A DNA stretch of 63,831 nucleotides, from the NCBI GenBank assembly GCA_043228905.1, contig JBHGNT010000159.1, forward strand, positions 1 to 63,831. The letters are read 5' to 3'. Origin of the DNA: Azolla caroliniana. Its lineage: Eukaryota; Plantae; Polypodiophyta. The notes beneath the pieces are model-generated. The model did no database searches and was not told the DNA's origin. It saw nothing but the letters and a program-made list of their open reading frames with translations. Shown piece after piece: positions 12,603-47,076 of the stretch (positions are counted from its first letter, which is position 1; every line of letters begins with the position of its first letter). The position numbers and the translations under genes are program-made.

Positions 12603-13351
12603 ATTTAAAAATATGTTAAATACGTTTTCTTAATATGTTAAATACTTATAAAATATGTTAAATACGTATTTTACGTATAATACGTTAAATACTTCTAGAA
12701 TTTGAAAATTACTTACCTTTCAAAAAAATATCTATAATATTGTAAAAAACATCTATGTTTACACAATTTTGTGATGTACAATATAGTTCTACATCCTAAA
12801 ATGCATATAAGACATTTGAACATTTCACATCCTAAAATACTTGTAGTAATATGGATGTCGACATTCCCTTATTCTATAAATCAGTGTAAGTGTGTATCAC
12901 GATGTTCTACTTTAAATTGTAATTATTTACAATTATGCCTTCATAGATTGAGGAATCGTCTACGATTATCACGCTTATGATAAGTTTCTCTTTTCTTCAT
13001 TTTCTTCTTCTTCTTCTTCTATCTTTTGCGATTATCACACTCAAGACAGGTTTATGTCTTCTTTTCTCTCTTCTTCTTCTTCTTCTTCATCGTCGTCTCT
13101 TCTATTCTTCTTCCTTCCTTCCTTTGGCTTCATTTTCACTAAAATATTTTTTTCTTTTGCTTTTTGTTAGGGTTTTACTTACATTTTCTTTATAAATACG
13201 TATTATACCTATTTTTTTATAAATACGTTAAATACTGTATTGGACAAACGTACATGATGTTTGACTGAACAACATTGAGGTATAATACGTACTATACAAA
13301 TGATGAGGTATTATACGTATTTAAACGTTAAATACGGGTACGTAAACAACC
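12603..13351 (-). mobile_element. AT-rich end of a probable DNA transposon (MULE-like), truncated
   Basis: Abrupt compositional change; terminus GGTTGTTTACGTACCCG on the minus strand; repeated TA(C/T)GTTAAATAC subterminal motif (~12612, 12633, 12654, 12681, 13224, 13325). Second end not found. Confidence 0.5.
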
Positions 13352-21270: not shown

Positions 21271-21989
21271 TTACGTATCTCGATTATATCATTTATGGCT
21301 ATTTGATGTAACAATTTGTTTAATATATGCATATGCGGTCACTTGTATATGTATTTGATCGTATATATGTGCATCATGTGCCCTCACCCTTGTATAAACG
21401 TGTGAATAATAGGGGTGCCTTTATGGCGCCGAGTGGGAGTCAAGTCGGGACAAAGAATCCCATGTAAATCGAGATTTATCCCACATTGTAACGCATCCCT
21501 CTCCTTGTTCTATAAAAGGAAGGGATGGTCCCTTGTAGAGGGGTTGCCCATTTTGAGTCGTCGGGGTATACCATTTTGTAGAGGGTCATTTTGTTAAGAA
21601 TATTTGGGGTTAGTAACTGTCTTGTGGTCTTCTTCTTCTTCTCCTTCTTGAGAAGTTGGGCGCAGTAGCCATGACGGCAAAGCTCTGTTAGGGTTAACAT
21701 CTTTTCTTTTGAGCGTAGCCCGGTTCGAAGCCGGGGTTGTATCTTTTCCTTTGTAATATATACGCTTGTATCTGTTTGTGCATGTTGGTGTGTTCGGTGG
21801 TGTCGGGAGCATAGCCCTCCGTTCCCTGTGCATAAGAGTTGGTGTCATGCACACGCTCTCTCTCTCTCATGTTCGGTCGCCTACGGGTCATGTCCGGAGT
21901 CGGTTTTCTTGGCATCCCTTTTTCCCTCGTCCAAGACCCCCGTGGTCCTGCCCCTTTCTACATGTACGCGCGTAATAACACGGCATCTT

Positions 21990-22007
21990 TGGTGAACCCG
22001 ACGTGAA
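21990..22007 (+). promoter_or_regulatory. Primer-binding site complementary to the tRNA-Trp 3' end (N2)
   Basis: TGGTGAACCCGACGTGAA is the reverse complement of the plant cytosolic tRNA-Trp 3' end (UUCACGUCGGGUUCACCA, recalled sequence); it lies 4 nt after the LTR. Confidence 0.85.
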
Positions 22008-22010
22008 AGG

Positions 22011-22554
22011 TGTTGGGAATATGTCCCTCCAGTGGGAGGATGATCCAACTATTCGGAAAACCGACAGTCGAAGAGTCGAAAAACAGGACCCGAGTTTCCA
22101 CACGAAACTGGATATATAATAGCCAACTCGGGAGACTATATTTGTAAATAGTCTAAGTGTTCGCCCCATGAGGGCTACGTATGTAAATAACCGGAAAGTT
22201 GTGTAAGTATATATACAACTAGGGCAAACCTTATGTATGTGTAGAATGTGTTTGTGTTGAGAACGAGAGAGTGTGAGACAGAGAAGGTAGAGTCGCGCCA
22301 TAGCTATGTGCGTAATAGCAGACGCGAAGAGCCATGTGCGGCTGATATACTCGATAGAGTATTGTAATCATCTCCGTGTTGTATATCCACTAGATATAGT
22401 GAAGAATCTGTTCTTGTGGTTTTCCTCGTTTTAGGGTTTCCACGTAAATCTTTGTGCACCATTGTTTATCTTGTCTATTCTGTTATTCGGGTGTAATTCG
22501 TATTTCAGCGTTGTCTGTCTATTGTGATTTGAATTCCGTGATGGTTTCTCTACA
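22011..22554 (+). mobile_element. Solo LTR (copia B-related) with TSD AAAGG
   Basis: TGTTGGGAAT...CTCTACA termini; AAAGG at 22006-22010 and 22555-22559; shares the start and CTATATTTGTAAATAG with the B LTRs. Confidence 0.9.
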
Positions 22555-22572
22555 AAAGGGTGGCAAGGGAGA

Positions 22573-23412
22573 ATGGAGTTGGAAGAAGACGACTTCGCGC
22601 AACTTTTTGTCGAAGTAGTGAGGGAGTTTGAACGAGCAACAACAAGAAGAGAGACGGCGCAACAAGCTATTGAGCGAGTGGTCGAAAGAGTTGGCCGTTT
22701 CAATGGGGACAAGGTCCCATTCTACTTGGAAGCCTACAACGCGGAAATGGAGGAGCGAGACGTAGATGAGGCGTTGAGGCTGGAGTTCTTTTGTCGGGTC
22801 GTCGTCATCCGTATGCACGCAGAAGTGAAGGAGCTCTGAGAAGCTCATAGTTCGTGGGAGGCCTTCGAAGAGGCGCTCCTGCAGGCATATGGAGGACGAC
22901 GGAAGAGTCAGGGACGACGTGGCTTCGACTAGTGGGTGGCATCGGCGAAGACGTACTGGGGCAAAACGAAGGCATTCCGAGAGTTCGAGCGACGGCTTGC
23001 TCGACTCCCAAAGCGGGAACAAGGTTTGGTGGGGGCGGACAAAGTCCTATTGTTCGTTAAGTCGATCGACCAAGCGGAACGGGAGGCCATCGGGATTGAG
23101 CTCAAAGACGAGGACGGACCGAATGGCCTTACAGAGGACTGGTCGAAGGTCGGAAGGATATGCCAACAGCTAGATGACGAGTGGGCTGAGAAGGCTAGGA
23201 GGAAGGCGTGTGACGGCGTGCCATCACAACGGGAAGAGGCCGAACGGCAAAGAGATTCCGCAAGGCTCAACTTCGGGGCAAGGTTTGCGAAGGTGTACGC
23301 AGCTCTCGAGGCAATGCTTGAAGTAGAGGAAAGAATGAGGCTGCAAGCTGAAACCGAGGAGACGGACTTGCCCCACAAGATGGCGGAAGATTGCTACGAC
23401 GGTACCACGTGA
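22573..23412 (+). pseudogene. N2 Gag (family C type), two in-frame stops
   Basis: AIERVVERVGRFNGDKVPFYLEAYNAEM and VLLFVKSID..GLTEDWSKV align with C2 Gag AIESIVGSIGRFGGKDATSYLEAYRAEM and VLLFVKSLD..GLTMDWAMV. Confidence 0.88.
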
Positions 23413-24970
23413 GAGGGTGCGGAACAAAACGCCCTCTCAGCTTGCGAAAACGGAACGGCCAAGGACAAGGCCGAGATACCGATCGCAGAATCGGAACGTT
23501 GGAACCGGCGGTTTTAGGCACGTCAGCCTGAAACTCCGGACATTGGAGAAGCAAGCCTAGGCAGGGCTTGCGCAATCGGTAAGGAGTCGACCACCGACTA
23601 TGAGGAGCCGATGGCTACGGACAAGGGCACAAATACGACGGGCGGTTCTATGCGTCTTCCCACACTTGCTCCGAAAACGATGGCAATCGGGCCCGAGTGC
23701 CCATGTGAGTCCCAAGAGGAGGAAGGTGGCGGCGTGAGACCGAGAATCGCCGGTGAGACGATACGAGGAAGGAGCGGACAAAAGCCCTCGGAACCGATTC
23801 CGGAGAACTCAGATTCGAGCTGTTATGCCCACGTGAGACAAAGGAGATGGATGACGATATCGAGGAGTCCTGGCACGATGTCAGTGAAGATGGATGGGAA
23901 ATGGCCCGCGAGGAGATCGGCGAAGGAACCATGGAACGACCTGATTGGGGACCGAACCGCACGGCACTCCGATTCGGGTGGGGCGCGATCCGGTTGTGGA
24001 TTGTTCGACTGTGCTAGAATCCGCATGAGGGTGCTGATACGAGAGGGGGTGTAGAACAAGCCGCCCTCTTTTACATGGGGAGAAAGACCGACCAGGCGAA
24101 GGTCGGAAATCAAAAGGAAGGTGATCAAGGGTTCAGAACGAATCCGGCGGGATCGGCATCGGAGCCGAAACTCCAGACATTGGAGAATCAAGCCCATGCG
24201 GGCTTGGTTGATCATAGAGCAGATGCTATCCATTGACACCACTAAAAGGGTCGGTGGCCTGGGATGAGTTGCCGAAAGACGTTACGAAATCGGTTACCCC
24301 ACATCTTGACCGGAGACTTCGGCGGTTCAAGCCAACGTGGCAACGTGGAAGGAGCGTAAAAGGTGGATCAATGGCGACGAGGGGGAAGAAGGGGTGGTTG
24401 ACCGAAATATGGGTCCTCCACACTCATTGCCGAGACTGAGGCGTTTGCGTTTGAGAACCAAAGGAAGACCTAAGAGACGGAAAGTGGTGCGAGCCACCCT
24501 CTCGACATGCGAAGAAGGAAGACCCAGGATAAGGGTCAGAGATACAGCACGCCCGAGGAGGATCCTTCACACCGGTTTTAGAGACTCCAATGGTCGGCCG
24601 AGAGCCGGCATGAGACCTAGAGTGATAAACGGTGGCGGCAAGGGGACGAGAGTGGAAGGCAGTGAAAGGCCGATCCTAAGGTGATCCTCACACCAATCCG
24701 GAGACACCAGTAGTTCAAGCCGACGTGGCAATGTGAGACCGATTGAGAAGGATGGTGGCGGCAGGTGAACGGGATCAAGCAGGAGGGGCGGAGGCAGAGC
24801 GGCAAGGAGGTATCAGTCCGGCACGGTGACCACTAACCGAAACTGGGCTGGAAGACAACGCGGAAGGAGGAGGAAGAATCGAAGGAAGGTCCTATGGGAT
24901 CCTCACACCAATATGGGGACACGGGTAGTTCAAGTCGACGTGGTAACGTGAGACCAAGTGAGAAGGATGG

Positions 24971-27900
24971 TGTAAAAAGTAACGTGCGGAAGCAAGTATG
25001 AAGACCGAGCAGAAGGAAGAAAACTCAGGTTTAATGGAGAGCTTGAGCTTACGCAGTATACGCAGGAGAGACAGAGAGAGTGAGAGAGAAAACACAAGAA
25101 CTATATTCAACAAAAGATCTCGATTCACTACTCTATACATATGTGTGTTCCATGAACACTTTTATACCAGTCCTCGAAGGATTGACCGAAGTACTAACCG
25201 TACTTCAATGCTCTTTAAGAGCTCCTACACTAACTCCCAAATATATTCCTCACGGAATATCTTTCCTAACGGCCTCCCGGTTTACGCACTCGGCCTAACC
25301 GATCGGTCCCAATCGATCCGGTCCTCGGCTTCTTCAGCCGATCCGGCCGATGTTGAGCTTGTCTCTCAACACTCCCCCTCAAGCTCAACTCGAGGCTCTT
25401 CGGGACCCTCGGGCTCACAGCTCCGGTTCCTCCTGGTTTTACGCCTCGCTCGCGCTCCTCGACCTGTTCGACTCCGCGCGCTTCGACCCTTCCAGTCGGC
25501 TTGTTTGCTCATGCGGCCCTTATCAGGTCTTCTGTTGTTGCGGTGTTGACACTTCTCCTGCTGCCTTTTCTTCTGCTTGGGCCTCGGTTGATTCAGCGTA
25601 TCTGAATCAAACATCCGAAAGGACTCGGCTACCTCCGACCGGTTTTCGCTCCCGTCCGAGTTGGCTGTCTCCAACTCGTCTTCGGTCTTCTCGCCCTTGC
25701 TGGCGTCATCTTCCCCATGCGTGGTTGGCTTCGGCTCTCTCCTTCGGCTGCTCCCCTTCTGTCCGCTTTCGGACTTTTCCACAGGGGGTCCGCCCTTGGC
25801 TTCTTTAGCCGATCCGAAGTCGAACTCGACAACCGAGTCAACAACCGAGTCAACCGACTCGGTGTCGCGGCCTCGGCTCCTTTCCTGCTGCTTTGCTTGG
25901 TAGTTCGGGATTGTTCTCCCCCGAGAATTGGCACGTCGAGAATTGCCGCAACTTGTCCAGACCAAGGTGCTTAGTGAAGATGTCGGCAGTCTGCCGATCC
26001 GTCGGAATGTACCGAAGTTCGTCTTCACCGGAAAGGACACGCTCACAGAAGAAATGGTAGTGCACCTCAATGTGCTTGGTCCATGCGTGGAAAACGGGGT
26101 TTTTCGCGAGCTGGATGCTGCTGAGGTTGTCGAAGTAGATCGTCGTCGGATCTGACACCTCCTCTTGCAGATCCTTAAGTAGCCGCTTCAACCATATGGC
26201 TTCGCATGTCGCGACAGCCGCTCCTCGGTACTCAGCTTCGATGCTCGACAGTGCAACTGTCGGCTGCTTCTTACTGCTCCACGCGATCGCGGCACTCCCG
26301 AGGGAGAACGTGTATCCAGACGTGGATCGGCGATCAGCGGCGTTGCCAGCCCAATCAACATCGGTGTAGACGACTAACTGCGCGGCTGCACCGGTCCGAT
26401 ATAGTAGTCCCCGGTCCTTAGTGTCGTTGACATACCGAAGTATGCGTTCCGCACACTGAAGGTGCTCCTCGGTAGGTCGCGCCATGAACTGACTAATCAC
26501 TCCGACCGGATAACTGAGGTCGGGTCGGGTGATGGTCAAGTATATGAGGCTTCCGACAATTTGTCGGAACCTCGTCGGGTCGCATACCGTTCCCGTATCG
26601 GGACGAAGCTTGACGGTTCTGTCCAGAGAAGTTGAGACTGACTTACAGTCGACCATCCCGAATTTGAAGAGCATACTCAGCACGTAGTGACGTTGGCTGA
26701 TCAATATGCCTTCGGGGGTACGGATCACTTCGATCCCGAGGAAGTAATGAAGGTCCCCCAAATCCTTCATGTCGAACGATGCCGCAAGCTAGAGCTTCAC
26801 GCGGTGGATTTCACCTAGGTCGGCGCCGGTGATGACAAAGTCATCAACATATAGTAAAATACTAACCGGTCCGAGTTGACCTTTCCGGATGAACAGGGAA
26901 GAGTCCGATTTTGACGTGACGAAACCCATCCGACGCAATTGTTGCGTGATCTTCGCGTTCCAGGCACGCGAGGCTTGCTTCAGTCCGTAAAGGGACTTCT
27001 TCAGTCGGCATACTGCCGAGGAGTTCGTTCCAGAGTGAAATCCAGGGGGCTGTACCATGTACACCTGTTCCTCAAGGTCACCTTGCAGGAACGCATTCTT
27101 TATATCCATCTGATGTAAGTGCCACCCCTTGGCCGCGGCTACTGCGAGCAAAACACGGACGGTCGTCATTTTCGCGACCGGCGCAAACGTCTCATCGTAG
27201 TCGATGCCGTGTTTCTGCGCGTAGCCCTTTGCCACTAGCCGAGCCTTGTACCGGTTGACTGAGCCATCGGTGTTGTAGTTGACCTTGTACACCCACCTAC
27301 ACCCGAACGGTTTTACCCCTCTTGGTGCGTCAACCAAGTTCCAGGTCTCGTTCTCCGCCAATGCATGCATCTCTTCCTCCATCGTGGCACGCCAATTCGC
27401 GTCTTTAGCAGCTTCTGCATAGCTCTCCGGCTCATGCACTTCCGCTACACGGGTCATGTACGCATAATGATGCGCCATGTACTCGTTGTATCCGAATCGC
27501 AAAACAAGATTCTTCTGGCGGGTAGATCGGCGTAATCTCACATTAGCCGATGTCGAGGCCTTCTCGGTCGACGCGGTCTTCACCTTTAAAGACCCGTCAC
27601 CGGTTCCCTCGGAGTCGGACTCGCGTCGGTCTGACTCGTTCCTATCCGTGCCGGAATCCGACACCTTCTTCTTCCCTTTCTCTTTGCGTGTAAGCCGTCT
27701 CCTCGGTTTCCTGCGCGGGGAATGCACGGCCGAGTCTCCACTACTCGTCGGCTCTTCATCGGACTGGTCGTACCGACTCACTCGTCCAATCGCTCCACTT
27801 AAACGGAGTGAAATCGGACTCTCTTCGCGGGTCTTGATTTCGGGCTCATCCGGAGGCATCTCGGCCTCGCTGACCTCATCGTCAGAGCTCGGATTGGAGT

Positions 27901-30479
27901 TGGGGTTCGGAGTTGGGGGCTGGTACCAGGACGCGGACTCGTCAAACACAACGTCGCGGCTAACACGCGCTTGTTTGGTGCAAGGGTTATAGCACTTATA
28001 GCCCTTCTGCTCGTCCGAGTAACCGACCAAGATGCATTTCTCGGCCTTTGCGTCCAGCTTCCTCCTTTTCTTCTTCGGTACATGCACATACGCAATGCTA
28101 CCGAACACCCTCAAGTATCGCAAGTTCGGCGTGTATCTACAACTGAATTCGCGCCGAATTCCCATTTGTTGTAGATAACCGTTGAATTGACCTGAAAAGT
28201 ACTCTTTCCCGCCATCCGACCGCAGGCACTTGATCTTTCGTCCCGTTTCCGTTTCCACGAACCCTTTGAGGTCCCGGAAATAGTCGAAGACTTCGCTCTT
28301 CCTCTCAATGAGGTAGATCGACGTGTGCCGCGTGTGGTCGTCGATGAAGGAGACGAAATATCGGCTCCCACCAAGACTAACATTTTGTGCCGGCCCCCAT
28401 ACATCGGAGTGTATAAGGTCGAGCTTATTCCGGCTCCGGTTTTGCTCGTTGGGGAAAGGAAGTCGGTGTTGCTTCCTGAGCTGGCAGGCTTCACAAATTT
28501 GTGCCTTTCGGCCACTAAATTTGGGCAATCCGAACACTACCTGTTTCGATTGCAGATCTTGAAGCCGCTGGTAGTTGACATGGTCTATCCGCTTGTGCCA
28601 CAAGTCGATGTCCGACTCGGTTTTTCTTCCCTTCGCAAACATTGTGGTGCCGCCGTCAGTGGAGTTGAGGATGAACATCCTCCCGTCTCTGCGCCCTTGC
28701 GCAATCACACGGCCTTCTTCCTCAATGAAGCACCCGAGGTGTGTAAACCGGACCTCCATCCCTTGGTCGACGATCTGTCCGACCGAGACCAAGTTCTTCG
28801 TGATTGTCGGAATGTGCAGCACGCTCATGAGTTTCCCTTTCTGCCCGACATGGCTAAGGGGAACTTCTTCGACATTCGCGATCGGATGCGGAGTGTCGTC
28901 TCCTGTTGCGACTACTCCAGGTTGTATCGGTTTTTCAAGGTACGAGAACCACTCCTTATGGCTCGTCATGTTGATTGACGCGCCGGAGTCTACGTACCAT
29001 AGCTCATCCGATCTCGGGGTGATCTGTTTCATTGACTTTGGTTTGTGTCTCGTCACGAAGGCAGACCCTTCTCTGGCTCTCCCGGAGTCTTCGGCGTAGT
29101 GTGATCACTGCCGATTTCCCTTGTCGGTATGTCCGGAGCCGTTTTCGGAACCGGTTCTCTCCGAATCGGCGTGCTTCTTCCAGCACTCACTTTCCCTGTG
29201 GCCTTTCTTGTCACAGTACCAGCACTCCGCGATGGCCTTCTCTTGCCGGTTCTCATCGCTTCGACTCCCCCTGTTTCCGGAGGGTTCGGAGTTGCTGTCG
29301 GCCCTAAACCGGTGCCTTCTTCCTTGATCTCGTCGGCCGCCTCCATTGCGCGCCGACTCGCCTCGACCTCCACGTCCACGGGGCCTATCTCCCTCCGTGT
29401 ACAACATTCTGCCGTCGGTGTGCGTGCTTGTAGAGGCACCCGCGTGGTTCTCCTCTACCAGGAGCATTGACTGTAAGTCGAAAAAGGACGACGTATTCTC
29501 CCGGGTACACACAGCCGTCCAGAACGCTCCGAACTTCGACGCCAAACCTCCGAGACAGATCTGGACCATCTCACTCTCCTCGATGTTCACCTCTATGGAG
29601 GCGAGGGAGTCGCAGATATCCTTGATCTTCGAGGTATAGTCCGCCACCGACAAGTCGCGTTGTCGTAGGTTGCTCAACTCCTGTCGGAGCTGAAGCTTCC
29701 TGGCTGTGGTGCTCATGGCGAAGATCTTCTTCAGATTTTCCCATGCACCCTTCGGCGTCTTTGCATCCCGAACATAGCTCAATAGCTGTCCACACACGAC
29801 GCGAAGCAGTATAATACCCTGCTCACCGATTGCTCCCACGACGGGAAGTCTCTGTGTGTCGATTCAGGTGCCGCGTCATTAGCTCCTTCGACATAACTCT
29901 AGTAGCCGTGCCCGAGCAGGTACTGGTGCATCTTGTAAGACCAAGACGTGTAGTTGGTTCTGTCGAGCTTCTCTGTTGGAAGCGAGCTCACCATGCCTCT
30001 ATCCATCGTTCTTCTTGTTCTTCTTCGTCAAGCTATGTCGGCTGCAGAGAGGTTCTCAACCCTTGCGCTCTGATACCATGTAAAAAGTAATGGGCGGAAG
30101 TAAGTATGAAGACCAAATAGAAGGAAGAAAACTCAGGTTTAATGGAGAGCTTGAGCTTACGCAGTATACGCGGGAGAGACAGAGAGAGTGAGAGAGAAAA
30201 CACAAGAACTATATTCAACAAAAGATCTCGATTCACTACTCTATACATATGTGTGTTCCATGAACTCTTTTATACAAGTCCTCGAAGGATTGACCGAAGG
30301 ATTGACCGTACTTCAATGCTCTTTAAGAGCTCCTACACTAACTCCCAAATATATTCCTCACGGAATATCTTTCCTAACGGCCTCCCGGTTTACGCACTCG
30401 GCCTAACCGATCAGTCCCAACCGATCCGGTCCTCGACTTCTTCAGCCGATCTGACCGATGTTGAGCTTGTCTCTCAACA
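24971..30479 (-). mobile_element. Copia F, complete: two 401-bp LTRs (24971..25371, 30079..30479), TSD GATGG
   Basis: GATGG at 24966-24970 and 30480-30484; iMet PBS 30067..30078; PPT 25372..25383. Confidence 0.97.
25372..29994 (-). pseudogene. Copia F gag-pol with stops, frameshifts and an integrase deletion
   Basis: Gag knuckle CWYCDKKGHRESEC; protease WYVDSGAS; IN HSDVWGP, RSDGGKEY; RT QMDIKNAFLQG, YVDDF; RH DVDWAG...TKHIEVHYHF (ORFs 29105..29839, 26789..29056, 25850..26770). Confidence 0.95.
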
Positions 30480-30808
30480 GATGGTGGCGGTAGGAAACGG
30501 GAACCGGCGATGTAGAAAGAGCGGATTGGGAGCCGATGAGACGGGAGCCGGCAAGACTCAAATTGAAGAAGGGGCGAACCCTTACCGGTCGGTTACGGTT
30601 TCGGAAGGAGCCGGTAAGGACCAACCAGGGAGCGGTGGGTCAAGCTGGAAATGCACACCCGGGAGCGGAACATAAGACGTGCATGTGGCCATTAAGGACC
30701 AATTTGAAGCACGAGTATGGGACGATGTTCGGCACGGGTGGTGCCGAACAAGGATGGTGGAAGACGGTGTCGTGAAGAAAATCAGCCATAGGCGGAATTG
30801 GAGAGAAG

Positions 30809-36800: not shown

Positions 36801-37582
36801 TCATTTGGTGTGTCGTGGCTGCTTTTATACCGGGACGCAACGCTTCCGTCGCTTTCCGACTCCGCCTCAAGTGTTGCGAATGCTTCTGAGTCCCCGTCGC
36901 CCCCGGCGAGCGTCTGCAGTATCGTTTCCGCCTCTTGCAGGCTTGTTATGCTACTGCCTTCGTCGGGGATTTGCAGAACCCGGAACTGCAGTGCTTCTTC
37001 TGCGACTCTCCGAAGAGTTTTGGAGAATGACCGATCCCGTTGGATCTCGTCGACGGCTTACTGCAGGGCTTCCCGTCGTTGCTCGCGTTCGGTGTATCGT
37101 CTCCCTCGTTCGGTGATGTGGTCGTCGTTTGGTATAGACATCCATCCCCCGGTTGTCCTCTGCACTTTGCAGGAATCGTGGTCGCCAAAATAGTGTTGTC
37201 TGGCTGGCCGGACTAGCCTCAACACAGGTGTCTATCCAACACTTCTCCAAAGGGGTGGTAAGGATTGAATGCTAGGTTACACGCGTAAGATGATTACAAT
37301 TAAGCATAGACGGTAAACAATACGAGATACAGATAGACACGCAATAATTACTATTGTATTACTTCCGTCAAACCCTTTACAAATCATCGGATCCTTTTAT
37401 AGGCATCCGGCAAGGTTACAATCGGTGCGCTTAGGCAACCGACATCCGAATCGGTCCGGATCCGGATCGGTACAACTGTACCGGATCCGTCCCTCCGAAT
37501 AATAATTCTACTATTATTTACTTCCTATTATCCGGTCCGACTCCGCCTTCCCACTTGTCCTTGCTCTTCTGACCGGCCAATA
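30809..37582 (-). mobile_element. Gypsy D (Athila/Tat-related non-chromovirus); 5' LTR ~37194..37582; 3' end deleted
   Basis: PBS TGGCGACCACG (tRNA-Arg-like, inferred); long gag-pol; no chromodomain; inserted in the C2 5' LTR. Confidence 0.92.
31265..36361 (-). CDS. Gypsy D Gag-Pol (gag, 3 CCHC knuckles, PR, RT, RNase H, IN); gag probably starts at 37141 and is frameshifted near 36410
   Basis: 1698-aa ORF: IIDGGSGVN, CVDYRKLN, FLDGFSGYNQI, VFLDDF, FVDASD, HCGIAGGH..CDLC, WGLDFVGP, PQANGLAE, WTGPF. Confidence 0.95.
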   Translation of the reverse strand: MHVKHLPGSFATFDALKARFLRLFHRQFEQKELVGQFYTTRQEENETVPQFIIRFQTLHSQLIRAPPEDEAKAVFLAALKEPLRTMCGVLDFQTRTMDQVIDRVLEMDKTSPFLSMGMLHRALPKEEDLRFRQALQCTTCLNSGHSTVDCTLRTQCMICNSRAHTTDRCEYNLLNRQAAPVRHIEPRNQNPDEDRFRRDDGNIYADRRRDNYDREERHRDSYPRDRYDRDESPEYERCREERRQGNRNFQRNQKRGFFRREERREAARNDNPVSVPDNRKTEDDRRSIPTLQTGDKGETSNSHKVYCYYCRKEGHYSNQCPSKTNDKQPEVNMVTAEITEVQQVTTRSKGKTAEWEAQEAIRKQAAQWIKQANEQNAAEVRDKNMPKDEEIIQPGENPTWQALQDCQIVLPLAPLLQLVPRFTADLQASVSKPKPTQAPTFFSNPEEGPAVVDTSSPAITAIVKGKEIARTIIDGGSGVNVISQQTCNDLGIRDWEPCPFWLRMADTSSVRQTGLIRDLEVTIGGHVFRISAVVLQLNVQGAYPLLLGRPWLRTAHMKQSWQKNMITFRRGKTKVRVTTQPRVITSKEATPLYAESINMLEGLPDEEVERYLEEHPGIVPLFEVDITAAVEPYITTPDEPDHAAIRELRQAQESLEREMMISQRVKASQLEEVDLGTADKPRPVNVAKELPKEEKKAMVALLTDFKDVFAWSYKDMRGLDPQLYQHQIHLSTDAKPIAQRRYRMNPNYAAKVKEEIDKLLRVGFIRPVKQATWLSPILVVPKKNGKIRVCVDYRKLNAATVTDAFPLPFTDGVLDAVAGHEVYSFLDGFSGYNQIRMNPADQEKTSFVTEWGVFVAVVMMFGLKTAPATFQKIIMEIFGKYIPGFMQVFLDDFAVYSRHGEHLDHLRLCLEKCREYRLSLNPAKCVFGVASGNLLGHVVSKEGIAVDPDKVKAILEAPAPNNAKALSRFLGQIRWHSRMIRHLANFATPLHTAVHRVPFLWAETEEEAYQALKVMLSQAPVVQPPDWSKSFHVFVDASDVAIGRVLMQLTEPKWYRPVYYASRKLSKAERNYSTTEREALGMVYSVTKYRHYLLGRKFSFHVDHSALLYLVSKASLTGKIARWTLLLQEFEFDIFHRPGAQHAVADYLSRLESGEAGDGVQDDFPDAELFRITTKPATDTTVADEDTWLTEMHQFLSTRVPLENMDRDERKRVAVRSRHFCLVGDTLYHKGADGIWRRAVRSDEKDLILREAHCGIAGGHYAGDATARKIWQSGLWWPTTLKDAVKYSRECDLCQQLGQPTEQARMPHHPVLPLEPFQKWGLDFVGPFKQLAMRTGNRYVIVATDYCTKWVEAKALRDNTVASRAKLLYECIWCRYGCPIKLISDQGGHFLGQVVESLTSFYAVVHKKSTPYYPQANGLAESTNKTLQNILRKIVNENRTDWDTKLQSALWAYRTTYKTSIRTTPFRLGFGLEAVMPVEFQIPSLRIQVKERLSENESERIWLATLLELEENRIASLLQLELEQRRRKAFVDRHRRGNEKEFEVGKPVLLFQTRIGNMSGKLRFRWTGPFWITKEYNGSYQLGTLSGDVIGKWANGFRLKPYKGNMPANPFKKNPKIRQDEEPTPILTKTIPENRQKDPVSTRTDPNKSGGTSKSRGPNKEKKKKKKEDVGKIDANHSNDGEITRGGSATMQRRGAMH

Positions 37583-37939
37583 GGGGACAGGGAATAAAGG
37601 GGAGAGGACAAGAGCAAACGGGGCATCGCGCGCGAGGAGGTAGGGGGAGAGGCTTCGGAACGGAAGCCCGAGCTCTCTACTGGAATCGTCGCTCTCTGCG
37701 GGTGTCGGGAGGTCGCTGACTCTGCTTCGTGGATAGCCCGTGTGCTTCCAGCAGAGTCACTCCCTTTTGCCCCTTTTGTTTTCTTTGAGTCGTGTGACTG
37801 TCGTCGGTGTGCATGAGTTGGGTCCCCGTGTCGGGTCCGTCGCCGCCTTGTCGGTTGTAATTGTCGGAGCTTGTAACCTCTTGTCATTATAATTAAGTGT
37901 TACGTTCTATATCTCTTTTTCTTGCCTGTACGTGTCTGT

Positions 37940-37993
<54 letters not shown>

Positions 37994-38061
37994 CTCCTCG
38001 GTCCAAGACCCTCGTGGTTCCGCCCCTTTCTACACGTACGCGCATAACAACGCGACATATT

Positions 38062-38079
38062 TGGTGAACCCGACGTGAA
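38062..38079 (+). promoter_or_regulatory. tRNA-Trp PBS of C2
   Basis: TGGTGAACCCGACGTGAA, identical to the N2 PBS, 4 nt after the LTR end at 38057. Confidence 0.85.
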
Positions 38080-38101
38080 GGGGCAGCAAAGGAGTCAAAA
38101 G

Positions 38102-40232
38102 ATGAGGGGATCGGAGCTAGCAGAGGCAATGGCGGTGGCCGTCGACCGGCTGGTGAGCGCTCGTGAGGGGACAGGTACCCTCGATAGAGCCATAGAATCG
38201 ATCGTCGGCTCTATAGGCCGTTTCGGAGGGAAAGACGCCACAAGTTATTTGGAGGCTTACCGGGCCGAAATGATCATGAGGGATATCCCGGTGGACAGGC
38301 GGCTGTCCGGATTCCCTCGGGTGGTGACGCCGGGCATCCATGCAGAGGTGGTCGAGGTGCTGGCCGGATGCCAGACTTGGGAGGAGTTCGAGCTGCAGCT
38401 CCTCGAGAAGTACGGGTTTGACGACTCGCTCCGGCTGTTGAGGCGGGACTTCATGGCATGGGTGGAAAGCCCCCGAAAGGGGAGGAACACGTCGGTGCTC
38501 CTCCAGGAGTTGGAAAAACGGTTCGCGCGGCTGTCGACGCTGGACCGGACGGTGCTCGAAACAAGTCGAGTACTGCTGTTTGTCAAGTCGCTGGATGCGC
38601 TCGACAGGGAAAAGGTGGGTCCCCTATTGGAAATGGACAAAGGGCTCACGATGGACTGGGCTATGGTAAAACGGGTCTGCAACCGTTTCGACAAACGACG
38701 CGATTGGAGCAAAGGAAGCACGTCCCGGGGAGGAAACTCGAGGAGCCAGTTTCGGTGCCGGATGGGAGGAAGGAAGAGCCCCGAATCTGGCCGGAGTCGG
38801 GGTCGGCATCGAACGACGTGGTCAGAGGCCCATCAGGAGGAGCGGCTCTGGAGGAGCGGCTCTGGAGGAGCTGACACAGATGGTGCGCGACCTGCAGATC
38901 GCACAGGCCCGGAGAGACAACGGTGAACAACCTCGCGACTGGAGGCCGCCAGCTGGGCAACAGTGCATGTGGTGTGACATGATCAGTCACATTCGGAAGG
39001 ATTGCGCGGATTTCGCCGACGCGCTCAGGACCAACGTGGTGTACCTCTGGAACGGGCGGGTGCACGCAAGCGAGACCCGGAGAGCCCTAGAACTGAATAC
39101 GGGGCGCGGCGGAATGAAGAGGTTGATGGAAGAGGCCGTGGCACGGCACGTCGAAGCCGTCAACTACTCGGTGTCGGCGGGAATTCGGATCGGGGGTGAT
39201 GAGACCCGGAAGGCGAAGGATTCCAGATTCTGGCCGCTAGTGCTAGAAGGCCTCTCTGGAGTTCGGTTGAGGAAGGAAGAGGCGGACCGCGCGGAATAGA
39301 GGGTCCAGGAGGTCACCGGTTGGGACGATCCGGTCGAAGAGAAAACGGGCTTTGTAGAAACCACTCGCCAGAACTACGAGAATCTGGTGGAGGACAAATG
39401 GGCAAGAAAGGCCGGAGGGGTCGGACCCCCGAGGTATGAGACTTGGTTCGGACCGAAACCGACCGGTGCCGGCAACCCAGGCGCGCCGGACGAAAAGAAG
39501 CAGGCAGGGTTTCGGTTGAGCACCGAGATCGAAAGGACCACAGACCTACGAAAGGTCCTGGAGGAACGTATCCTCGACAACAAAGTGGAGTTGTCATTGC
39601 GGGAGGTGCTGGGAATCGCCAAGAGGGAGTTCCACGACTCTATCGTAGACTTGGTGAAGCGCAAGAGGCTCTCGACGGAGCTGGAACCGGAGATGCCGGT
39701 GGAGGTACGGACCACGCACCTGGAAGACGAAGCCCTGGAAGACGAGCTAGTGGGAAGCCACTACATGAAGCCGCATTGGGCCAGGGCGACTACGGAAACC
39801 CCTATACAGATTGGGAACGTTCTGGAACCGGTGGTGGCGTTGGTAGACCATGGATCCGAAATCAACCTGATGTCCATGGATTTCTACAAGAAGGGTAAAT
39901 GTCCGATCAACACCAAGCATGGTTGGAAGATACGGGCAGCGACGCGCGCCACGGAAGAACTACATGGGGCCTGTCCGAACGTACGGGTGAAAATCGGCGA
40001 TGTCGAGATCGACCAACACTTCTTCGTGCAGGAGACGTCCTCGCATTTGGTTATACTAGGAGAGCCATATATCACGGCAGCACGGATGGAGACCAAGGTG
40101 TTGGACAAAGGTTCAGCCTATGCTAGAGTCAAGAGCCAGGACGGGCGTCACTCGGTCCAGTTCCTAACGGTGCGACCAAACCACGAGCGTAACCGCGAGG
40201 CCTTGGGCAGCGAAACCCGAGGGTATTTTTAG
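38102..40232 (+). pseudogene. C2 gag-protease (capsid-like region, CMWCDMISHIRKDC knuckle, aspartic protease)
   Basis: ORFs 38075..38926, 38880..39299 and 39387..40232; LVDHGSEINLM, QHFFVQ, VILGEPY. Confidence 0.88.
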
Positions 40233-43057
40233 AGAGGGCTATCGAGGCGTGGAGCCACGATAGTTCGGACGTCCGGGAACAACCCCACAAATGTACAGAA
40301 CGAAAGAAGACTTGTACCATGGGTAGGAAGTTTTGGTTCTCCGACAACGGAGGTTGTACTATAACCGGCGTCAACGGCCGGGAGAGGAAGCGAGCGGAGG
40401 AGCGGCTCAAGGGATGCGGAGTCCTCTTCCCCGACGAAGACATCAGGGGCGCCGTGGAGGCGGTCTCTTTTGACGACACCTTGGGAGAACTACGAAAGGT
40501 GATTGATGAAGACCTTAGAGAAGACCGGACCGTTCCGATAGGATCGATGGGAATGTACGATCAGTTCCAACTAGCCGTGGAGAGTAGAGACATTACGACG
40601 ATGCAGACTCCTCTCGGCCTAGTGCAGATGTGTACCCTGCCACAAGGAGGGACGGACTCAGTGGCTCACATGGTGAACGCGATGAACAAAGTGCTCAGGG
40701 ATTGTGTCCCGGACATCACCATGCCATTCTTAGACGACATCCCGATCAAGGGATGCCCGATGGAGAAAAGGGACGAGGCAATCGGGCTGAATGGATGTCG
40801 GAATTTCGTGGTGTCCCACATCGATGACTGCGAGAAGGTGTTGCAGAGACTAGAGCGCACGAGGCTCACCTTCTCCAGGGAAAAGTCGGCCTTCGGACAG
40901 TCGGAGATCTTGGTGGTCAGACACCTGTGCGGGCCTTATGGTAGGAAACCGTCTCCGGAAAAGGTAGAGGCCATCTCCGCGATGAGGAACAATTGCGGGT
41001 CGGTCACGGAGGTCCGCAGATTCTTGGGGGCATTCGCGTTCTACCACATCTGGATCCTGCACTACGCACATGTCGCGGAACCCCTCTACGGGCTATTGAA
41101 AAAGGGGCGTAGCTTTGAGTGGAGGACAGAGCACACGGAGTCGGTTCGGAGACTAAAGGAGGCGCTTACGGTAGCGCCGGCTCTCCGTAAATCGGTTTAC
41201 GGCAAGGATGTTCCCATCTGCGTAACGGTGGACACTAGCCCGACCGGGATCGGGTGGGTAATCAGTCAAGAGGACAAGGGCGGCGTACGATTCCCGATCC
41301 GGTTCGGGGTGAAGGTATTAAGCGAGCGACAACGAGGGTACGCCCAGGTTAAGCGCGAACTTTGGGGTGTCGTTTCGGCAGTCAAGGCTGACAAGGATTA
41401 TCTGATCGAGACAGAGGTGATCATCGAGACAGACTGCCTGCCGATACTTGGCATGGTTTCCGGATGCGCGACGCTAAACCTAGCAATGCTCTGGTGGATA
41501 GCGTACATTAAGTCCCTGAACCTGGAGATATGGCACATCTCCGGAAAGGACAACGCCATGGCCGACATGCTTTCGAGGGCAAGGTTCAATGACGAAGACG
41601 GTATGGTTTCGGATGACGAAGAAGTCGGCGAGCACTTCTTCGGGTCGGCTAACGTAACGACGAGGAAAGGGAACACTCCAGCGTCTAACAAATTTGACGA
41701 AAGCAGGTACGACGGGCAGTGGCTCCAAATCGGGAGTTTCCTACGGACGATGAAGCCGGACGCAGTATGGGCGAGAGAGGAGGCAAGCCGGATACGGAGG
41801 AAGGCGTACCGATTCTTCCTGCGGGACAGGTGCATATGGAGGCACCCAAAGAAGAGAAGCGGCATTCCACTCCGAGTAGTAGCAAAGAAAGAAGAACAGG
41901 GGAAACTACTGGCGGCATTTCACGAGAGCCCCTGGGCCGGACACCGTGGAACGTGGGCCACTTTCGAGAAGCTGAAGCTGAAGTATTGGTGGCTGGGGCT
42001 GTACCAGGACGTGCATCGGTACGTAACGACTTGCGAAAGCTGTCAGATGCACTCTGTAGTCCGACACCGGGACGAGCTACACCCGTCCTACGCGCCTACG
42101 GTCCATTTCAAGTGGATGGTCGACTTGATGATGATGCCGATGGGGGTAGGACAGATGCGATACCTGGTGCTTGCACAGGAGGACTTAACGAACCAGGTGG
42201 AAGGCCGTGCACTGTAAAGCAAGACAACCGCGGCGGTATGCTGGTTCCTGATCGAAGAAGTAGTGTGTTGGTACGGGTGCGTCGGGAGGATCATGGCGGA
42301 CCGGGGAGAGCTGGATGCGCGGGAGGCCGAGGAGCTGTTTGATCGGCTAGGCGTCAAACTCTCCCTCACCACGGCGTACAATCCGGAGGCGAACGGAAAG
42401 GTGGAATGTGGGCACAGACCGATTGTAAAGGCGTTGGTGCGTGCATGCCGTGGGCAGGTCGGAAATTGGCCACGACTCCTTCCTTACGCGCTATGGGCGG
42501 ACTGAACTATGCACAGTTCAGTGATAGGGTTTATGCCGGCGGAGCTGATGTACGGACAAAAGCCGATCATGCCGGTGGAGCGGACGGTTTCTTCGTGGGC
42601 GGTGGTAGATTGGAAAGACGAAATGAGCCGGGAGGAGTTGTTGGCGGCGCGGATTCGGCAACTCGAGCAGAGGCCGGAGGACGTGATACGGGCGAAGGAA
42701 AGGCTGCAAGCGGCATAGGAGCGGAACAAGATCCGGTTCAACCGGACGCACCGATTGCGACCAAAGAAGATCGAGGAAGGCGACTGGGTCTTGGTATACG
42801 ACAGCAACCTCGACAATAAGCACAAGGCGGTGCGAAAGTTTGCTAGGAGATGGTTCGGGCCCTACATGGTGACGAGCGCGAACGGCCACGGAACGTACCA
42901 CCTCGCAGAACTCGACAGGACACGGTTAGCGGTGCCGGTGGCCGGAAAGCGGATCCAAACTTTCAAAAAGCAGTCCGAAGACGAGCCGGAGCCTGCGAGC
43001 GGGAGCGACAACGACGATCAGTTCGGGTCCGACGGAGAATCGGAGAGCAACGAATGA
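40226..43057 (+). pseudogene. C2 pol (RT with N-terminal deletion, RNase H, integrase, no chromodomain)
   Basis: TPLGLVQMCTLPQGGTDS, PFLDDIPIKG, TVDTSPTGIG, IETDCLP, HESPWAGH..CESC, YNPEANGKVE, WFGPY; several stops. Confidence 0.92.
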
Positions 43058-43644
43058 GGCCGGTTTTCTTCGGTATCTACCTGTCTCTGGCGCATGCCGG
43101 TGGATGCGCGGTTTGGTGGGGGTGGATGTCGTGAAGAAAACCGGCCATAGGCGGAATTGGAGAGAAAGCGCGTAAACTGGCCCTTACACGGATGAACGCG
43201 TGACTGGATACTTTGCACGCGAACCGGTGGATGTAATTACTAAGCCGCACGCATTTATTCGAGGGGATTGTGCGTATCCCGGTCAGAGGGGACAGGGAAT
43301 GAAGGGGAGATGACAAGAGCAAACGGGGAATCGCGCGCAAGGAGGTAGGGGGAGAGGCTTCGGAACGGAAGCCCGAGCTCTCTACTGGAATCGTCGCTCT
43401 TTGCGGGTGTCAGGAGGTCGCTGACTCTGTTTCGCAGACAGCCCGTGTGCTTCCAGTAGAGTCGCTCCCTCTTCGCCCTTTTGTTTTCTTCGAATTGTGT
43501 GACTATCATCAGTGTGCGTGAGTTGGGTCTCCATGTCGGGTCCGTCGCCGCCTTGTCGGTTGTAACTCTCGGAGCTTGTAACCTCTTGTCATTATAATTA
43601 AGTGTTACGTTCTATATCTCTTTTTCTCGCCTCTACATGTCTGT

Positions 43645-43710
<66 letters not shown>

Positions 43711-46223
43711 CCTCGGTCCAAGACCCCCATGGTCCCACCCCTTTCTACACGTACGCGCGTAACAACGCGACAACGGCACACGACGGTGTCGGGAATGAGG
43801 TAACATGGGTGCGCAACAGACTACACGGTTGAAGACCGGAGACGGTATCAAGAGCCGAAGAAGGATCCTCCACACTCACTTTGGAGATCTTGGCGGCTCA
43901 GTCGGAGTGGCAACGACTGGCGTGGCAAGCCGAGCCCGTGATGAGAAGCCGGTGGGGGCGAGGGGACGACGACAAGCAGAAGGATCCGGACCAGTCGTAG
44001 TGGCGCGAGACGAAAGGGGGGGGCAAGTGGGCTACTACGGGGTGGTCCTCGGACACGGAGAGGACACCGATAAGCGGAGAGAGCGTGACACACGGAGGTG
44101 CCAGACCGGGAACACCGGCGCGGAGATAGGTTGCCAGTTCAGGTGATCTCGCATAGAAGGCCAAAGAGGGATCCTCCACATTGGTTCCGGAGACCTTCGT
44201 AGTTCGGCCGCCGTGGCAGCGTAAGACCATGGACAAGGTAGGTGGCGGCGAGGGACGAAGGCGATGGAGATCAGCGCGGGACGAGAACCGGGACGACGCG
44301 AAGGTCAACGGAGGCCGAGTGGGCCATCACGGGTGTTCCCTGGACAGAGGATACCGTGTAACCGCAGGAACGAGCGGCGTGCACGCGGTCAAGAGAAGGG
44401 CCAACGGGGAAACATGCGGACTACGTGATCGCTGCGAATGACCGATCGACAGGTCCAACAAGTGTATGGCAAGGCAAACGTGGAAAATGAACCGGAGCCG
44501 ACGGTTCGGACCGGCGAGGGCAACGCCGCTGTCGGAATGCGGATTATGGAAGACCGGTTCCTCACCAGCCAGAATCCCTCACACTTCTCTGAAGTTGGCA
44601 CGTATCGGTGGACGTGTGGTTTGGTGGGGCCGGATGTCATGAAGATTCTGGGCCATGGTGAGAAACCAGGGAATATCGGAAGAATCGGCGGAGTGCATCA
44701 TGTGCCCTCACCCTTGTATAAACATGTGAATAATAGGGGTGCGTTTATGGCGCCAAGTGGGAGTCAAGTCGGGACAAAGAATCCCATGTAAATCGGGATT
44801 TATCCCACATTGTAACGCATCCCTCTCCTTGTTCTATAAAAGGAAGGGATGGTCCCTTGTAGAGGGGTTGCCCATTTTGAGTCGTCGGGGTATACCATTT
44901 TGTAGAGGTTCGTGTTGTATCTTTTCCTTTGTAATATATACACTTGTATCTGTTTGTGCATGTTGGTGTATCTGGTGATGTCGGGAGCATAGCCCTCTGT
45001 TCCCTGTGCATAAGAGTCGGTGTCGTGCGCATGCTTTCTCTCTGTCTCATGTTCGGTCGCCTCCGAGTCGTGTCCGGAGTCGGTTTTCTTGGCATCCCTT
45101 TTTCCCTCGTCCGAGACCCCCGTGGTCCCGCCCCTTTCTACACGCACGCGCGTAATAACGCGACAACTTGATTTTAATATCAAATGTTTTCCTTTTCGGG
45201 GAAAGGATCTTGGTGGCCGTCCTCACATTTTTGTGAGCATGGCGTTGTCACCATCCTGTTTTCAATAATTTTTCATTGTTGACATTCCCGTTGGTGACTT
45301 CGATTTTATTACGTAAAGAAATGCCTATAGTCACAATGATGTTGAGAACCTAGGGCTTGACCCACTTCATGTGAGGTCACTCCTATGCCACACATATCCA
45401 ACATCCCGCCCTTGTTACATGGATACGATGCCACCATGAGATCATTCTTACGAAAGGCATTCGTAATGACGTAACCATGTGATGGGCCACATGGGCCTAC
45501 TACAAAAAAAGGGCTCATTTGGCTTGACCATTAGGTTGCATTAGCGTATGCCATTGTAATTACGAGACTTGAGGTTAGGTAACGTACCTACAAAGTTTGT
45601 GGTAAACGAGGGGGAAATAAGGACTCTTGACATATATGTTTCTTTTAAAAAAACATATATGGGCAAATGCCTTGCATATCTCTTATATGCATGAAACATT
45701 AAACATTCAAGAAGAGAAACCTACAACATCGTTGATACATATGAGTATAACACATGTTTAGACTTGAGGTCTAAGTGCACTTCAGAGTCCTCGTAATAGG
45801 ACGTAAAGAGACGAAACCACATATGTGGGCACAGAAACATAGTTTATTGTTAACATTTTTTTTCGTGTATAAACTACTCATGACGCGAACAGATATGGTT
45901 GAGCCTTGAGGAGCCGGCATGAAAAAATCGATATAGAGATCAGGGAAATACATTAATTTGTCAACCCCATGGTTTTTAAAACACCTTTGTGTTACCAAAG
46001 TAACCTGATCTTGAACCTCATCTCATACGTCTAGAGGGTATTGACGTGAGATCATGATATCGATTAATGTTTCTCCATGATATGTTTACATCACGACATG
46101 ATGTTATGACTATTTTTCTGACCTTATCCGATATCTTTGCCGGAAATAATCATTCAATGGCTCAAAATAACGACCCGATGTCATGCGCTCAAGCGGAAGG
46201 AACTCAAGGAAATCCTCCTGGAC

Positions 46224-46623: not shown

Positions 46624-46689
46624 GACTATAGGTTGGCAGTAGCTAATTAGCTATTCTTCCTAACTATGGCAGTAGCTAATTAGCTACCA

Positions 46690-47005: not shown

Positions 47006-47076
47006 TACATGTTGTTGGGGTGGGGGGTTGGGTCTACATCTTCTTGGCTTCACCCCCCTCTCAAGGGGGTTTCAAT

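Follow-up and report, generated by a model that had tools for sequence, protein, structure and literature searches.

A Gag-only LTR retrotransposon lineage with a long open tail in Azolla caroliniana, a probable satellite of a Phygy-like family

Two N and two C elements in the window

The window (the whole 63,831-nt stretch of Azolla caroliniana contig JBHGNT010000159.1) contains two copies of a Gag-only LTR element (N1 and N2), both broken, and two of an autonomous-type family (C1 and C2). N2 lies on the forward strand. Its 5' LTR (21369..21985) lacks the first 58 nt and carries an extra piece of ~141 bp at 21595-21735; two parts, measured separately, differ from its own 3' LTR by K2P distances of 0.032 and 0.086. 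The adjoining 17-nt primer binding site (PBS, 21990..22006), presumably of the tRNA-Trp type, is followed by gag (22573..23409), which encodes a two-lobed capsid (up to ~23180; fold taken from the relative L001) plus a linker and is interrupted by stops at 22837, 22930, and 23410. The tail downstream is divided into a decayed first segment (23410..24970, with ~125-nt modules at 23643, 24563, and 24685), a second (30485..30767), and a third (43777..44634) with a polypurine tract (PPT) motif at 44618 and a C-like final ~40–60 bp. A copia element on the reverse strand (24971..30479, TSD GATGG) separates the first two segments, and C1 (30768..43772, forward strand, TSD ACGG) the last two. The 531-bp 3' LTR (44635..45165) is flanked by ACTT, which is not NCGN, and because the 5' LTR is truncated, no TSD can be checked for N2. 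An earlier note on this DNA had removed the nested inserts from N2 but missed a third, an unrelated solo LTR (TG..CA, TSD AAAGG) in the leader (22011..22554). Its description of ~2.7 kb after position 23410 (1561 + 283 + 858 nt) without zinc knuckle, protease (PR), reverse transcriptase (RT), or integrase (IN) was accurate.

The C1 5' LTR (30768-30807 + 37582-38057) is interrupted by another gypsy element, and the interior holds the PBS (38062), gag (38102), a knuckle (~38964), PR, and RT-RH-IN, in that order, before the 3' LTR (43127-43772). C2 (10940..12602, reverse strand) is the 3' part of a second C element, comprising the integrase end, the PPT, and an LTR (11616-10940) flanked by CCGG. 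N1, on the forward strand, is incomplete at its 5' side. It retains a tail of 579 stop-free codons (13346..15082, modules at 13496, 13727, 13859, and 14410), a 3' tail with main-frame stops at 15083, 15422, 15668, and 15692, a W/R-rich end, and a PPT motif at 15881 (15083..15897), and a 526-bp 3' LTR (15898..16423) flanked on its 3' side by ACGC.

The terminal likeness between N and C reported by the earlier note held throughout. N1, N2, C1, and C2 share the LTR start TGTC(G/A)TGAAGA and, at 82–90% identity, the final 56–77 bp of the LTR (87–90% for N2 against C1 and C2), while the LTR interiors of N and C do not align. The same PPT 12-mer precedes 4/4 3' LTRs, ~38 bp upstream of the 3' LTR are also common to N and C, and the N2 and C1 PBSs are identical. 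NCGN was found at 17 of the 19 LTR flanks listed (15/17 sites), N-type and C-type LTR starts alike; the one TSD seen for an N-type LTR, ACGG, belongs to a solo LTR (L011). LTR-pair K2P distances, a comparison of insertion ages that the earlier note had proposed, were similar (N2 0.03–0.09, C1 0.08). The N2 Gag is homologous to that of C1 (39% identity over 184 aa, E = 1e-35), as the note had claimed, and N and C Gags generally share 32–39% identity across a long branch.

On its TSD, domain order, and layout, C appears to be a Phygy-like Ty3/gypsy family. Phygy elements likewise have a 4-bp NCGN TSD and a coding region that fills the internal part, with a tRNA-Trp PBS in 81% (Neumann et al. 2019, PMC6317226); the C1 TSD follows this pattern. 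C has the Phygy-like order GAG-PR-RT-RH-IN, and the precomputed Pfam annotations of close pol relatives list neither chromodomain nor aRH. An intact autonomous C-type element is present in locus L006. At ~7.3 kb (5,686-bp internal part plus ~0.83-kb LTRs), it falls slightly under the range of 7.7–10 kb (7.66–9.97 kb) given for Phygy, which was described as specific to Physcomitrium patens (PMC6317226). The same Gag family also occurs in P. patens (P0211), and the nearest named pols to C are those of Riccia sorocarpa (54–72%) and Adiantum nelumboides (68%).

A multicopy lineage without pol

N is a real multicopy LTR retrotransposon lineage of single origin that lacks pol. The N Gags form one clade (support 100/100), and all 30 bins of N1 were covered by thousands of contig pieces from four runs under three organism labels. 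Among 68 loci, collected with scan patterns biased toward N, all seven complete N-type internal regions, defined by a PBS and PPT in order (L001, L004, L005a, L005b, L006b, L008, and L009, from other assemblies), consist of a single stop-free ORF of 618–1,419 codons starting at the Gag ATG. L005b is a near-duplicate of L004, leaving six distinct ORFs. These ORFs reach from just 3' of the PBS to the PPT, join the two-lobed capsid to a tail of 300–1,100 codons, and stop between -109 and +110 nt relative to the LTR start (7/7 ORFs with an LTR start found). Close to the end, all complete ORFs carry a WxIGW-type motif in frame. Internal regions of 2.0–4.3 kb and two LTRs of ~0.5–0.7 kb give element sizes of ~3–5.5 kb (~4.6 kb for N2). 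Contigs of run X14, whose RNA label is a guess, cover 12/12 bins of an N element plus its LTR; of the C part of L006 they cover little or nothing, a blank that says nothing on expression.

The long modular ORF fused to Gag that the earlier note had envisaged thus exists in the intact relatives (7/7) but not in N2 itself. The gag frame of N2 segment 1 contains 10 stops in ~800 codons (31 and 29 in the other frames) and, against related loci, 1-bp deletions near 23813, 24012, 24095, 24199, and 24600. No intact ORF of the N2 subtype was found among the loci, L011, L020, L045, and L057 all being broken. The long stop-free frame in the window is that of N1, where positions 13346-15082 contain 0, 27, and 23 stops in the three frames (shuffles 18.8 ± 4.1; 0/1000 as low).

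Searches for pol were consistently negative. Family-specific HMMs found no pol remnant at iE < 1 in six frames of 11 N regions, and the controls matched. Pfam detected no pol domain in 10 N proteins, nor any match for the Gag or tail in these or in the N2 Gag (Retrotrans_gag and UBN2 included). Pol matches among the 68 loci were limited to the separate C element of L006 and a weak 39-codon match in L048.

N probably borrows PR, RT, and IN from the Phygy-like family C, with which it shares its termini. Since the N Gag is only 32–39% identical to that of C, separated by a long branch, the helper could also be some autonomous family that carries an N-like Gag and went unsampled. The existence of several C-like families (255 pol matches; the LTRs of C1, C2, and L006 differ) would accommodate such a helper. 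Yet neither a knuckle nor PR lies behind an N-type Gag at any of the 68 loci, all four proteins of 613–1,953 aa with an N-type Gag are without pol domains, and the close identity of the N2 LTR end to those of C1 and C2 points to C itself, making an unsampled helper quite improbable.

A conserved capsid and an open tail

The predicted structure of the L001 capsid has the two-lobed Arc/Ty3-type fold. In structure comparison, Arc, dArc, Copia, and Ty3 capsids filled the top rows (Z 9.7, rmsd 11.6, 142 aligned residues; Z 9.0, rmsd 1.9, 69 aligned for the N-lobe alone). Foldseek returned no match at E ≤ 0.001, with Arc/Ty3 capsids nonetheless heading the list.

Within the ORF, the capsid and the tail evolve differently. 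In two sets of disjoint pairs, maximum-likelihood omega was 0.29–0.40 for Gag (p ≤ 8e-6) and 1.03–1.09 for the tail (p > 0.3, at 0.7–1.3 substitutions per codon); only loci with a long open frame entered the analysis, and L005b was left out. The constraint (dN/dS < 1) that the earlier note had proposed to look for in a gag-fused ORF is accordingly present in Gag and absent from the tail (~1.05). In the tail, reversals of charge and hydrophobic swaps occurred at 1.25x the synonymous rate, with intervals including 1, and no amino-acid class was spared. The six distinct ORFs nevertheless remain open although ~20% of their tail bases differ. Nine tails picked as open contained no stops, against ~42 expected under drift. 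Without selection for openness, we counted 13 stops among 7,912 tail codons where coverage was ≥ 10 and 37 among 5,597 where it was lower (41/68 loci, after leaving out those with fewer than 60 tail codons); for comparison, the other frames of N1 contain 23–27 per 579 codons. Among the joints listed inside N ORFs (the best 12 of 148, plus 5 from a second table, without LTR-to-LTR and C-to-N joints), 15/17 changed length by a multiple of three, but they are not independent, as many jump between in-register modules. Since what is conserved is the sequence of the capsid and the openness of the frame, not the amino acids of the tail, translation through the tail is likely under selection.

The plus-strand motif in N2 segment 2, which the earlier note had considered conserved as protein between N1 and N2, is homologous only as DNA: tblastn of the segment against N1 gave E ≥ 3. 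N1 and L008 read the motif DNA in codon phase 2, the stop-free ORFs of L001 and L006b in phase 1, and other homologous tail DNA also differs in reading frame from one intact copy to another. Antisense coding, considered for a minus-strand frame of 463 codons in N1, was rejected on tail omega values of 0.93–1.11 in the three minus frames and stops in aligned codons. Taken as a whole, the N element shows none of the features that the earlier note had set against its own proposal (unique decayed chimeras with no shared interior, degenerate pol, no coding constraint on either strand).

Could composition, recent expansion, or collapse in assembly have produced the open frames as an artefact, with the N copies in truth decayed chimeras? 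The tail has only ~12% T, and the intact ORFs derive from short-read contigs that are collapsed (shared repeats make L005, L006, and L013 look chimeric), both window copies being broken. N1, however, is a single genomic copy with one open frame out of three that are equally T-poor, and its complete coverage by contig pieces, the openness of six diverged ORFs, and the Gag omega of 0.3–0.4 also contradict an artefact, which is largely refuted and hardly credible.

An unlikely alternative is that the tail protein matters in its own right, a long disordered acidic spacer with a W/R-rich end replacing the zinc knuckle as RNA binder or driving condensation, the frame being kept to deliver that end. 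This would explain the WxIGW-type motif, the absence of a knuckle from N, an acidic first third and a more basic last third in six subfamilies, and coil predicted from residue 179 by a single-sequence model, which is weak without an alignment. However, omega in the end region is ~1.0–1.2, charge reversals are not depleted, what follows the motif varies in reading frame and terminates after 10–115 aa, and stop avoidance alone holds TGG codons. The tail does retain a G-rich first codon position, an excess of E/D, and the acidic-to-basic gradient, and such biases could reflect a protein-level function that is invisible to omega.

Tail modules, probable helper use, and known relatives

The tail is built from a ~125-nt DNA module, of which 101 occurrences were counted, every one in sense orientation and none outside N elements. 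A rather doubtful reading, though less so than a functional tail protein, is that the tail serves mainly as a series of RNA hairpins, packaging or dimer signals whose number rose to give N an edge over C in the competition for capsids, with openness of the frame as a lesser requirement. Eleven of 21 predicted pairs are compensatory (0/500 shuffles as high), and in held-out modules helices 2 and 3 were 83–85% paired, with 9–10 compensatory events on the tree against 2.2 expected (p ~ 0.001). Against this, 47 modules from distant loci showed no excess (3–4 events against 2.0 expected, p 0.16–0.34), pair-keeping changes were no commoner in module pairs (0.44) than in control pairs (0.50), RNAalifold predicted 0 pairs on 60 modules, helix 4 had no support, single-module folding z-scores were mixed (-2.7 to +2.0), and C lacks the module altogether. 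Folding z-scores of the tail were no better than those of C, and Rfam gave one chance-level match on five loci. A hairpin array is compatible with a tail kept translatable. A separate idea, that the leader motif GGCGGCAAG is a packaging signal copied many times through the modules, was discarded: its copies outnumbered those in every one of 200 shuffles only for L001 and L006b, and L004, L005a, and L009 had 0–1.

Overall, we assign a probability of roughly 0.6 to the reading that N has long persisted as a TR-GAG-like satellite of C and that selection keeps its tail translatable, perhaps as a way to avoid decay. N RNA would be co-packaged with the Gag-Pol products of C, primed at the PBS and PPT common to both, and integrated by the C integrase. 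More speculatively, ribosomes reaching the PPT might leave a short 3' UTR that protects the RNA from nonsense-mediated or similar decay, and the tail DNA might grow and shrink by in-frame duplication of the module, perhaps acting as an RNA hairpin. Counting against the decay step, the gag-PR ORF of C stops ~3.5 kb before its own LTR, decay from long 3' UTRs is described as weak across the transcriptome (PMC6173133), and Ty1 is reported to depend on NMD factors and to show no cis-preference (PMC3945221).

TR-GAG elements (Chaparro et al. 2015, PMC4350172) are, like N, non-autonomous and multicopy, with LTRs, PBS, PPT, and one Gag ORF but no pol, and their mobilization in trans was inferred. Two LTRs, a PBS, and a PPT are all found in N2, and N exceeds the minimum of at least 2 copies; the size limit of <4 kb accommodates some N subfamilies and is exceeded by others (PMC4350172). 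The search rule of that study relies on Retrotrans_gag/UBN2, neither of which detects the N Gag, so that N would be missed by such a pipeline. TR-GAG1 measures ~2.5 kb, its Gag of 433 aa retains the zinc finger without internal duplication, and no autonomous partner was found for it (PMC4350172); N, in contrast, lacks the knuckle, fuses a repetitive tail of 300–1,100 codons to the capsid, exceeds 4 kb in some members, and has a candidate helper in C. The word "selection" does not appear in the main text of Chaparro et al. (PMC4350172), nor does the available text of Neumann et al. (2019, PMC6317226) describe a pol-less Phygy derivative. Among non-autonomous LTR families of sugar beet, 28–29 encode GAG/PROT only, short internal duplications are common, as in N, and partners are often unlike in sequence; the accessible text reports no long fused ORF, frame-only constraint, or capsid-lobe deletion (PMC13570524). 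In the openly searchable literature, we found no description of the N family or of frame-only constraint.

Gag-only LTR elements being already known, N bears on why such elements keep Gag. Its single ORF splits cleanly into a capsid conserved as protein and up to 1,100 codons in which only the openness of the frame is maintained, making it testable whether translation itself (through avoidance of decay or silencing, or through packaging) is needed to mobilize LTR-element RNA. It also provides a natural example of amino acids evolving neutrally along a long ORF that is kept, which bears on the persistence of new coding sequence.

An amplified N subfamily lacks the capsid N-lobe (12/38 N-type positions with PBS and capsid C-terminal domain (CTD), a count without the C element and the repeated L004 PBS, and with L031 taken as full length by spacing); at 11 of the 12, the PBS-to-CTD spacing is 130–132 nt versus 345–381 nt. 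Such a Gag may be unable to close a shell alone and might join or poison the capsids of others. Gag fragments with a capsid CTD are also found in Ty1 p22/p18 (PMC13709905) and Drt2 (PMC12624411), which act on particle assembly and restrict Ty1, the former as the product of an internal transcript, the latter as a domesticated host gene. The N-lobe-less Gag differs in being the sole gene of a self-amplified element. We tentatively picture, with more doubt than confidence, a stop-free array of RNA modules forming a 1–3.5 kb "gene" selected only for being translated, in which ribosomes accompany the RNA to the PPT and shield it from host surveillance; the half-capsid subfamily would dock onto helper particles and may throttle them as a mobile counterpart of Ty1 p22, and a knuckle-less, acidic-tailed Physcomitrium Gag suggests that Phygy-like elements evolved this layout repeatedly. 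With the half-capsid subfamily, capsid parasitism or restriction could be examined in a plant. Abundant N elements slip past Pfam-based annotation and are labelled as hypothetical genes.

A Gag-only family with a single long ORF

N, a pol-less LTR retrotransposon lineage with two copies in the window (N1 and N2), is represented by complete ORFs among relatives drawn from assemblies other than the host genome. All seven N-type stretches with PBS and PPT in order (six distinct) form one ORF of 618–1,419 codons, whose start lies ~40–50 nt from that of the PBS and whose end lies at most about 110 nt from the LTR start, in collapsed short-read contigs (coverage 15–51), some of them chimeric. The proposal in the earlier note that pol is replaced by a long Gag-fused ORF holds for these seven but not for N2 itself, a decayed copy with several 1-bp deletions and, in its first segment, 10 stops in the gag frame. 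N1 retains 579 codons without a stop (other two plus frames, 27 and 23 stops; shuffles, 18.8 ± 4.1). The accompanying claim that N lacks pol and a zinc knuckle was borne out: family-specific HMMs, whose controls scored strongly, detected neither in 11 N regions across six frames.

The N1 ORF matched 10 proteins, six with Gag at the start, and protein clusters supplied further complete N ORFs (1,116 aa; 1,419 aa in five cases). All 30 bins of N1 were covered by contigs from four DNA runs under three organism labels (6,677–10,478 records per run), and a metagenome scan yielded 68 loci. N2-like loci were found at 70–78% DNA identity, no intact copy being seen among them, and the N2 tail was matched by 20 loci. 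At 6660–7540 of one scanned locus (L006), an LTR of the type of family C, the candidate helper, precedes an N-type internal region and a terminal N1-type LTR; this reflects either a join made in assembly or genuine recombination via the common U5–PBS stretch.

Pfam returned no match to the N Gag. Structure prediction (pLDDT 78) gave a capsid with two lobes, best matched by Arc, dArc, Copia, PEG10 and Ty3 CA; the Z scores, at most 9.7, are modest given a helical protein, but the matches are consistent over the top 19. In an unrooted tree, subject to a long-branch caveat, all 17 N Gags fall into a single clade (100/100) that sits on a long branch, separate from the Gags of C (two) and of Riccia (12). 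One subclade lacks residues ~30–113, the entire N-lobe, which is absent at 12 of 38 N-type PBS+CTD positions, some in contigs of coverage 37–44; its C-lobe has an omega (dN/dS) of ~0.5 in a single pair. This half-capsid subfamily resembles Ty1 p22/Drt2 (PMC13709905). N is like TR-GAG in its working, but differs from the elements described in PMC4350172 in its lack of a knuckle, its long fused repetitive ORF, its size and its being missed by the Pfam rule. A literature search returned no description of the N family, nor of any Gag-only element constrained in frame alone.

Selection on the capsid and probable selection on the tail frame

Omega, estimated with codon models for two sets of disjoint pairs, was 0.29–0.40 for Gag, 0.52–0.80 for the linker and 1.03–1.09 for the tail; the end region reached ~1.0–1.2 (larger set). 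The dN/dS below 1 looked for along the Gag-fused ORF is found in the capsid but not in the tail. In DNA-level alignments of nine open ORFs, differences by codon position were 0.21/0.16/0.36 for Gag and 0.19/0.21/0.21 for the tail. Within the tail, no amino-acid class was spared except for K/R exchange (0.42, interval 0.20–0.91). The segment at ~14177 (N1) and ~30548 (N2), previously read as a plus-strand motif with conservative changes, is the same DNA in different phases: among the related loci, L008 shares its codon phase with N1, and L001 and L006b use another. The earlier reading of the motif falls. The N 3' end likewise changes frame between copies, and subtypes of the ~125-nt module repeated in the tail lie a compensated one-base shift apart, even among N1's own copies.

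Despite neutral amino-acid change, the open frame of the tail is kept. Tails chosen as open had no stops where ~42 were expected. In 41 loci unselected for openness, 50 stops occurred in 13,509 tail codons (0.16% at high coverage, 0.66% at low), counted in a protein-guided alignment biased toward open frames. Joints, the rearrangement junctions inside N ORFs, were in frame in 15 of the 17 listed, which are the top entries of longer lists and not independent of each other. Most likely, N RNA would be translated from the capsid ATG through to the PPT. A premature stop would leave 1–3.5 kb of the RNA untranslated, the likely reason why the frame is kept. NMD can be set off by long 3' UTRs, and retroviruses have elements for evading it (PMC5031192, PMC6173133). 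The far-upstream end of C's own gag–PR ORF argues against such a decay step, as do the dependence of Ty1 on NMD factors and its lack of cis-preference (PMC3945221).

Of its two main rivals, a functional disordered protein would draw on the remaining composition bias of the tail (G at position 1, E/D excess, an acidic-to-basic gradient), which leaves room for a protein role. The other, an RNA-signal array, bears on the module, the tail feature common to all N subtypes: all 101 copies lie on the sense strand (four in N1, three in N2), and C has none. Module covariation exceeded shuffles in training and held-out sets. It showed no excess when the distant loci were taken by themselves, and aligning 60 members gave no consensus structure; the module may form a hairpin, a lead for now. 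Contigs of one run that is only presumed to be RNA span an N ORF end to end, which is no proof of transcription.

Family C as candidate helper

C, a Phygy-like Ty3/gypsy family, has the order gag–knuckle–PR, then RT–RH–IN in an overlapping ORF, and is intact in L006. Among named pols, the closest to that of C come from a liverwort, Riccia sorocarpa, and a fern, Adiantum nelumboides, and the Gag family of C extends to Physcomitrium patens, which makes a seed-free land plant the likely host. The frame change in C lies between protease and RT, not gag and protease (window 40193–40232; L006 3131–3150), at a GATTTTT/TATTTTT run directly upstream of the gag–PR stop.

The LTRs of N and C have the first ~11 bp in common and are 82–90% alike over the last 56–77 bp; the PBS and ~38 bp preceding the 3' LTR are also common, and at the DNA level the post-gag region of C had no match to N beyond those ~38 bp. 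Of the 19 flanks listed, 17 carry NCGN, next to LTRs of both the N and the C type; in Phygy, TSDs are 4 bp long with NCGN and most PBSs are of the tRNA-Trp kind (PMC6317226). Insertion ages, whose comparison the earlier note had proposed, are similar for N2 and C1. Because cis-ends and target signature are shared, we infer that C mobilises N: translated N RNA would most likely be packaged with C enzymes, then copied and integrated via the shared ends.

Three proteins of the same Gag family, P0211, P0299 (Physcomitrium patens, UniRef) and P0222, carry an acidic low-complexity tail behind Gag, without knuckle or protease. They are nearer to Riccia-type Gags than to N Gags, and possibly represent an independent pol-less lineage.

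Layout of the window

The interval 21369–45165 is a nest of elements with N2 outermost. Its 5' LTR (21369–21985) lacks the first 58 nt and its 3' LTR (44635–45165) measures 531 bp; inside lie a solo LTR (22011–22554, TSD AAAGG), a copia element (24971–30479, TSD GATGG) and C1 (30768–43772, TSD ACGG), whose 5' LTR is interrupted by a minus-strand gypsy. N1 (13346–16423) is the 3' half of a related element, and C2 (12602–10940, minus strand) the 3' portion of another C element.

A large inverted duplication (18050–21371 and 45166–49140) has N2 in one of its arms; within it, 18489–19612 matches 46223–45166 inversely at 89% and 19639–21371 is a ~1.7-kb self-inverted stretch (78%) with copia-like PBS and LTR pieces. 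The left N2 junction lacks ~26 bp of flank along with the 58 bp of LTR. The gypsy in C1 (30808–37581) encodes a near-intact polyprotein of 1,714 codons; its own 3' LTR is gone, together with ~120 bp of the C1 LTR, its PBS presumably resembles tRNA-Arg, and a relative lies at 58928–63830. One copia family has three copies (24971–30479, 50867–54506 and 54519–58571; 72–91% identity), two of which adjoin in opposite orientations. An element at ~2899–8405 is bordered by two related arrays in inverted orientation to each other (2972–3349; 8097–8318): a 54-bp ×7 tandem array, which is open in several frames, and a 40-bp ×5.6 array.
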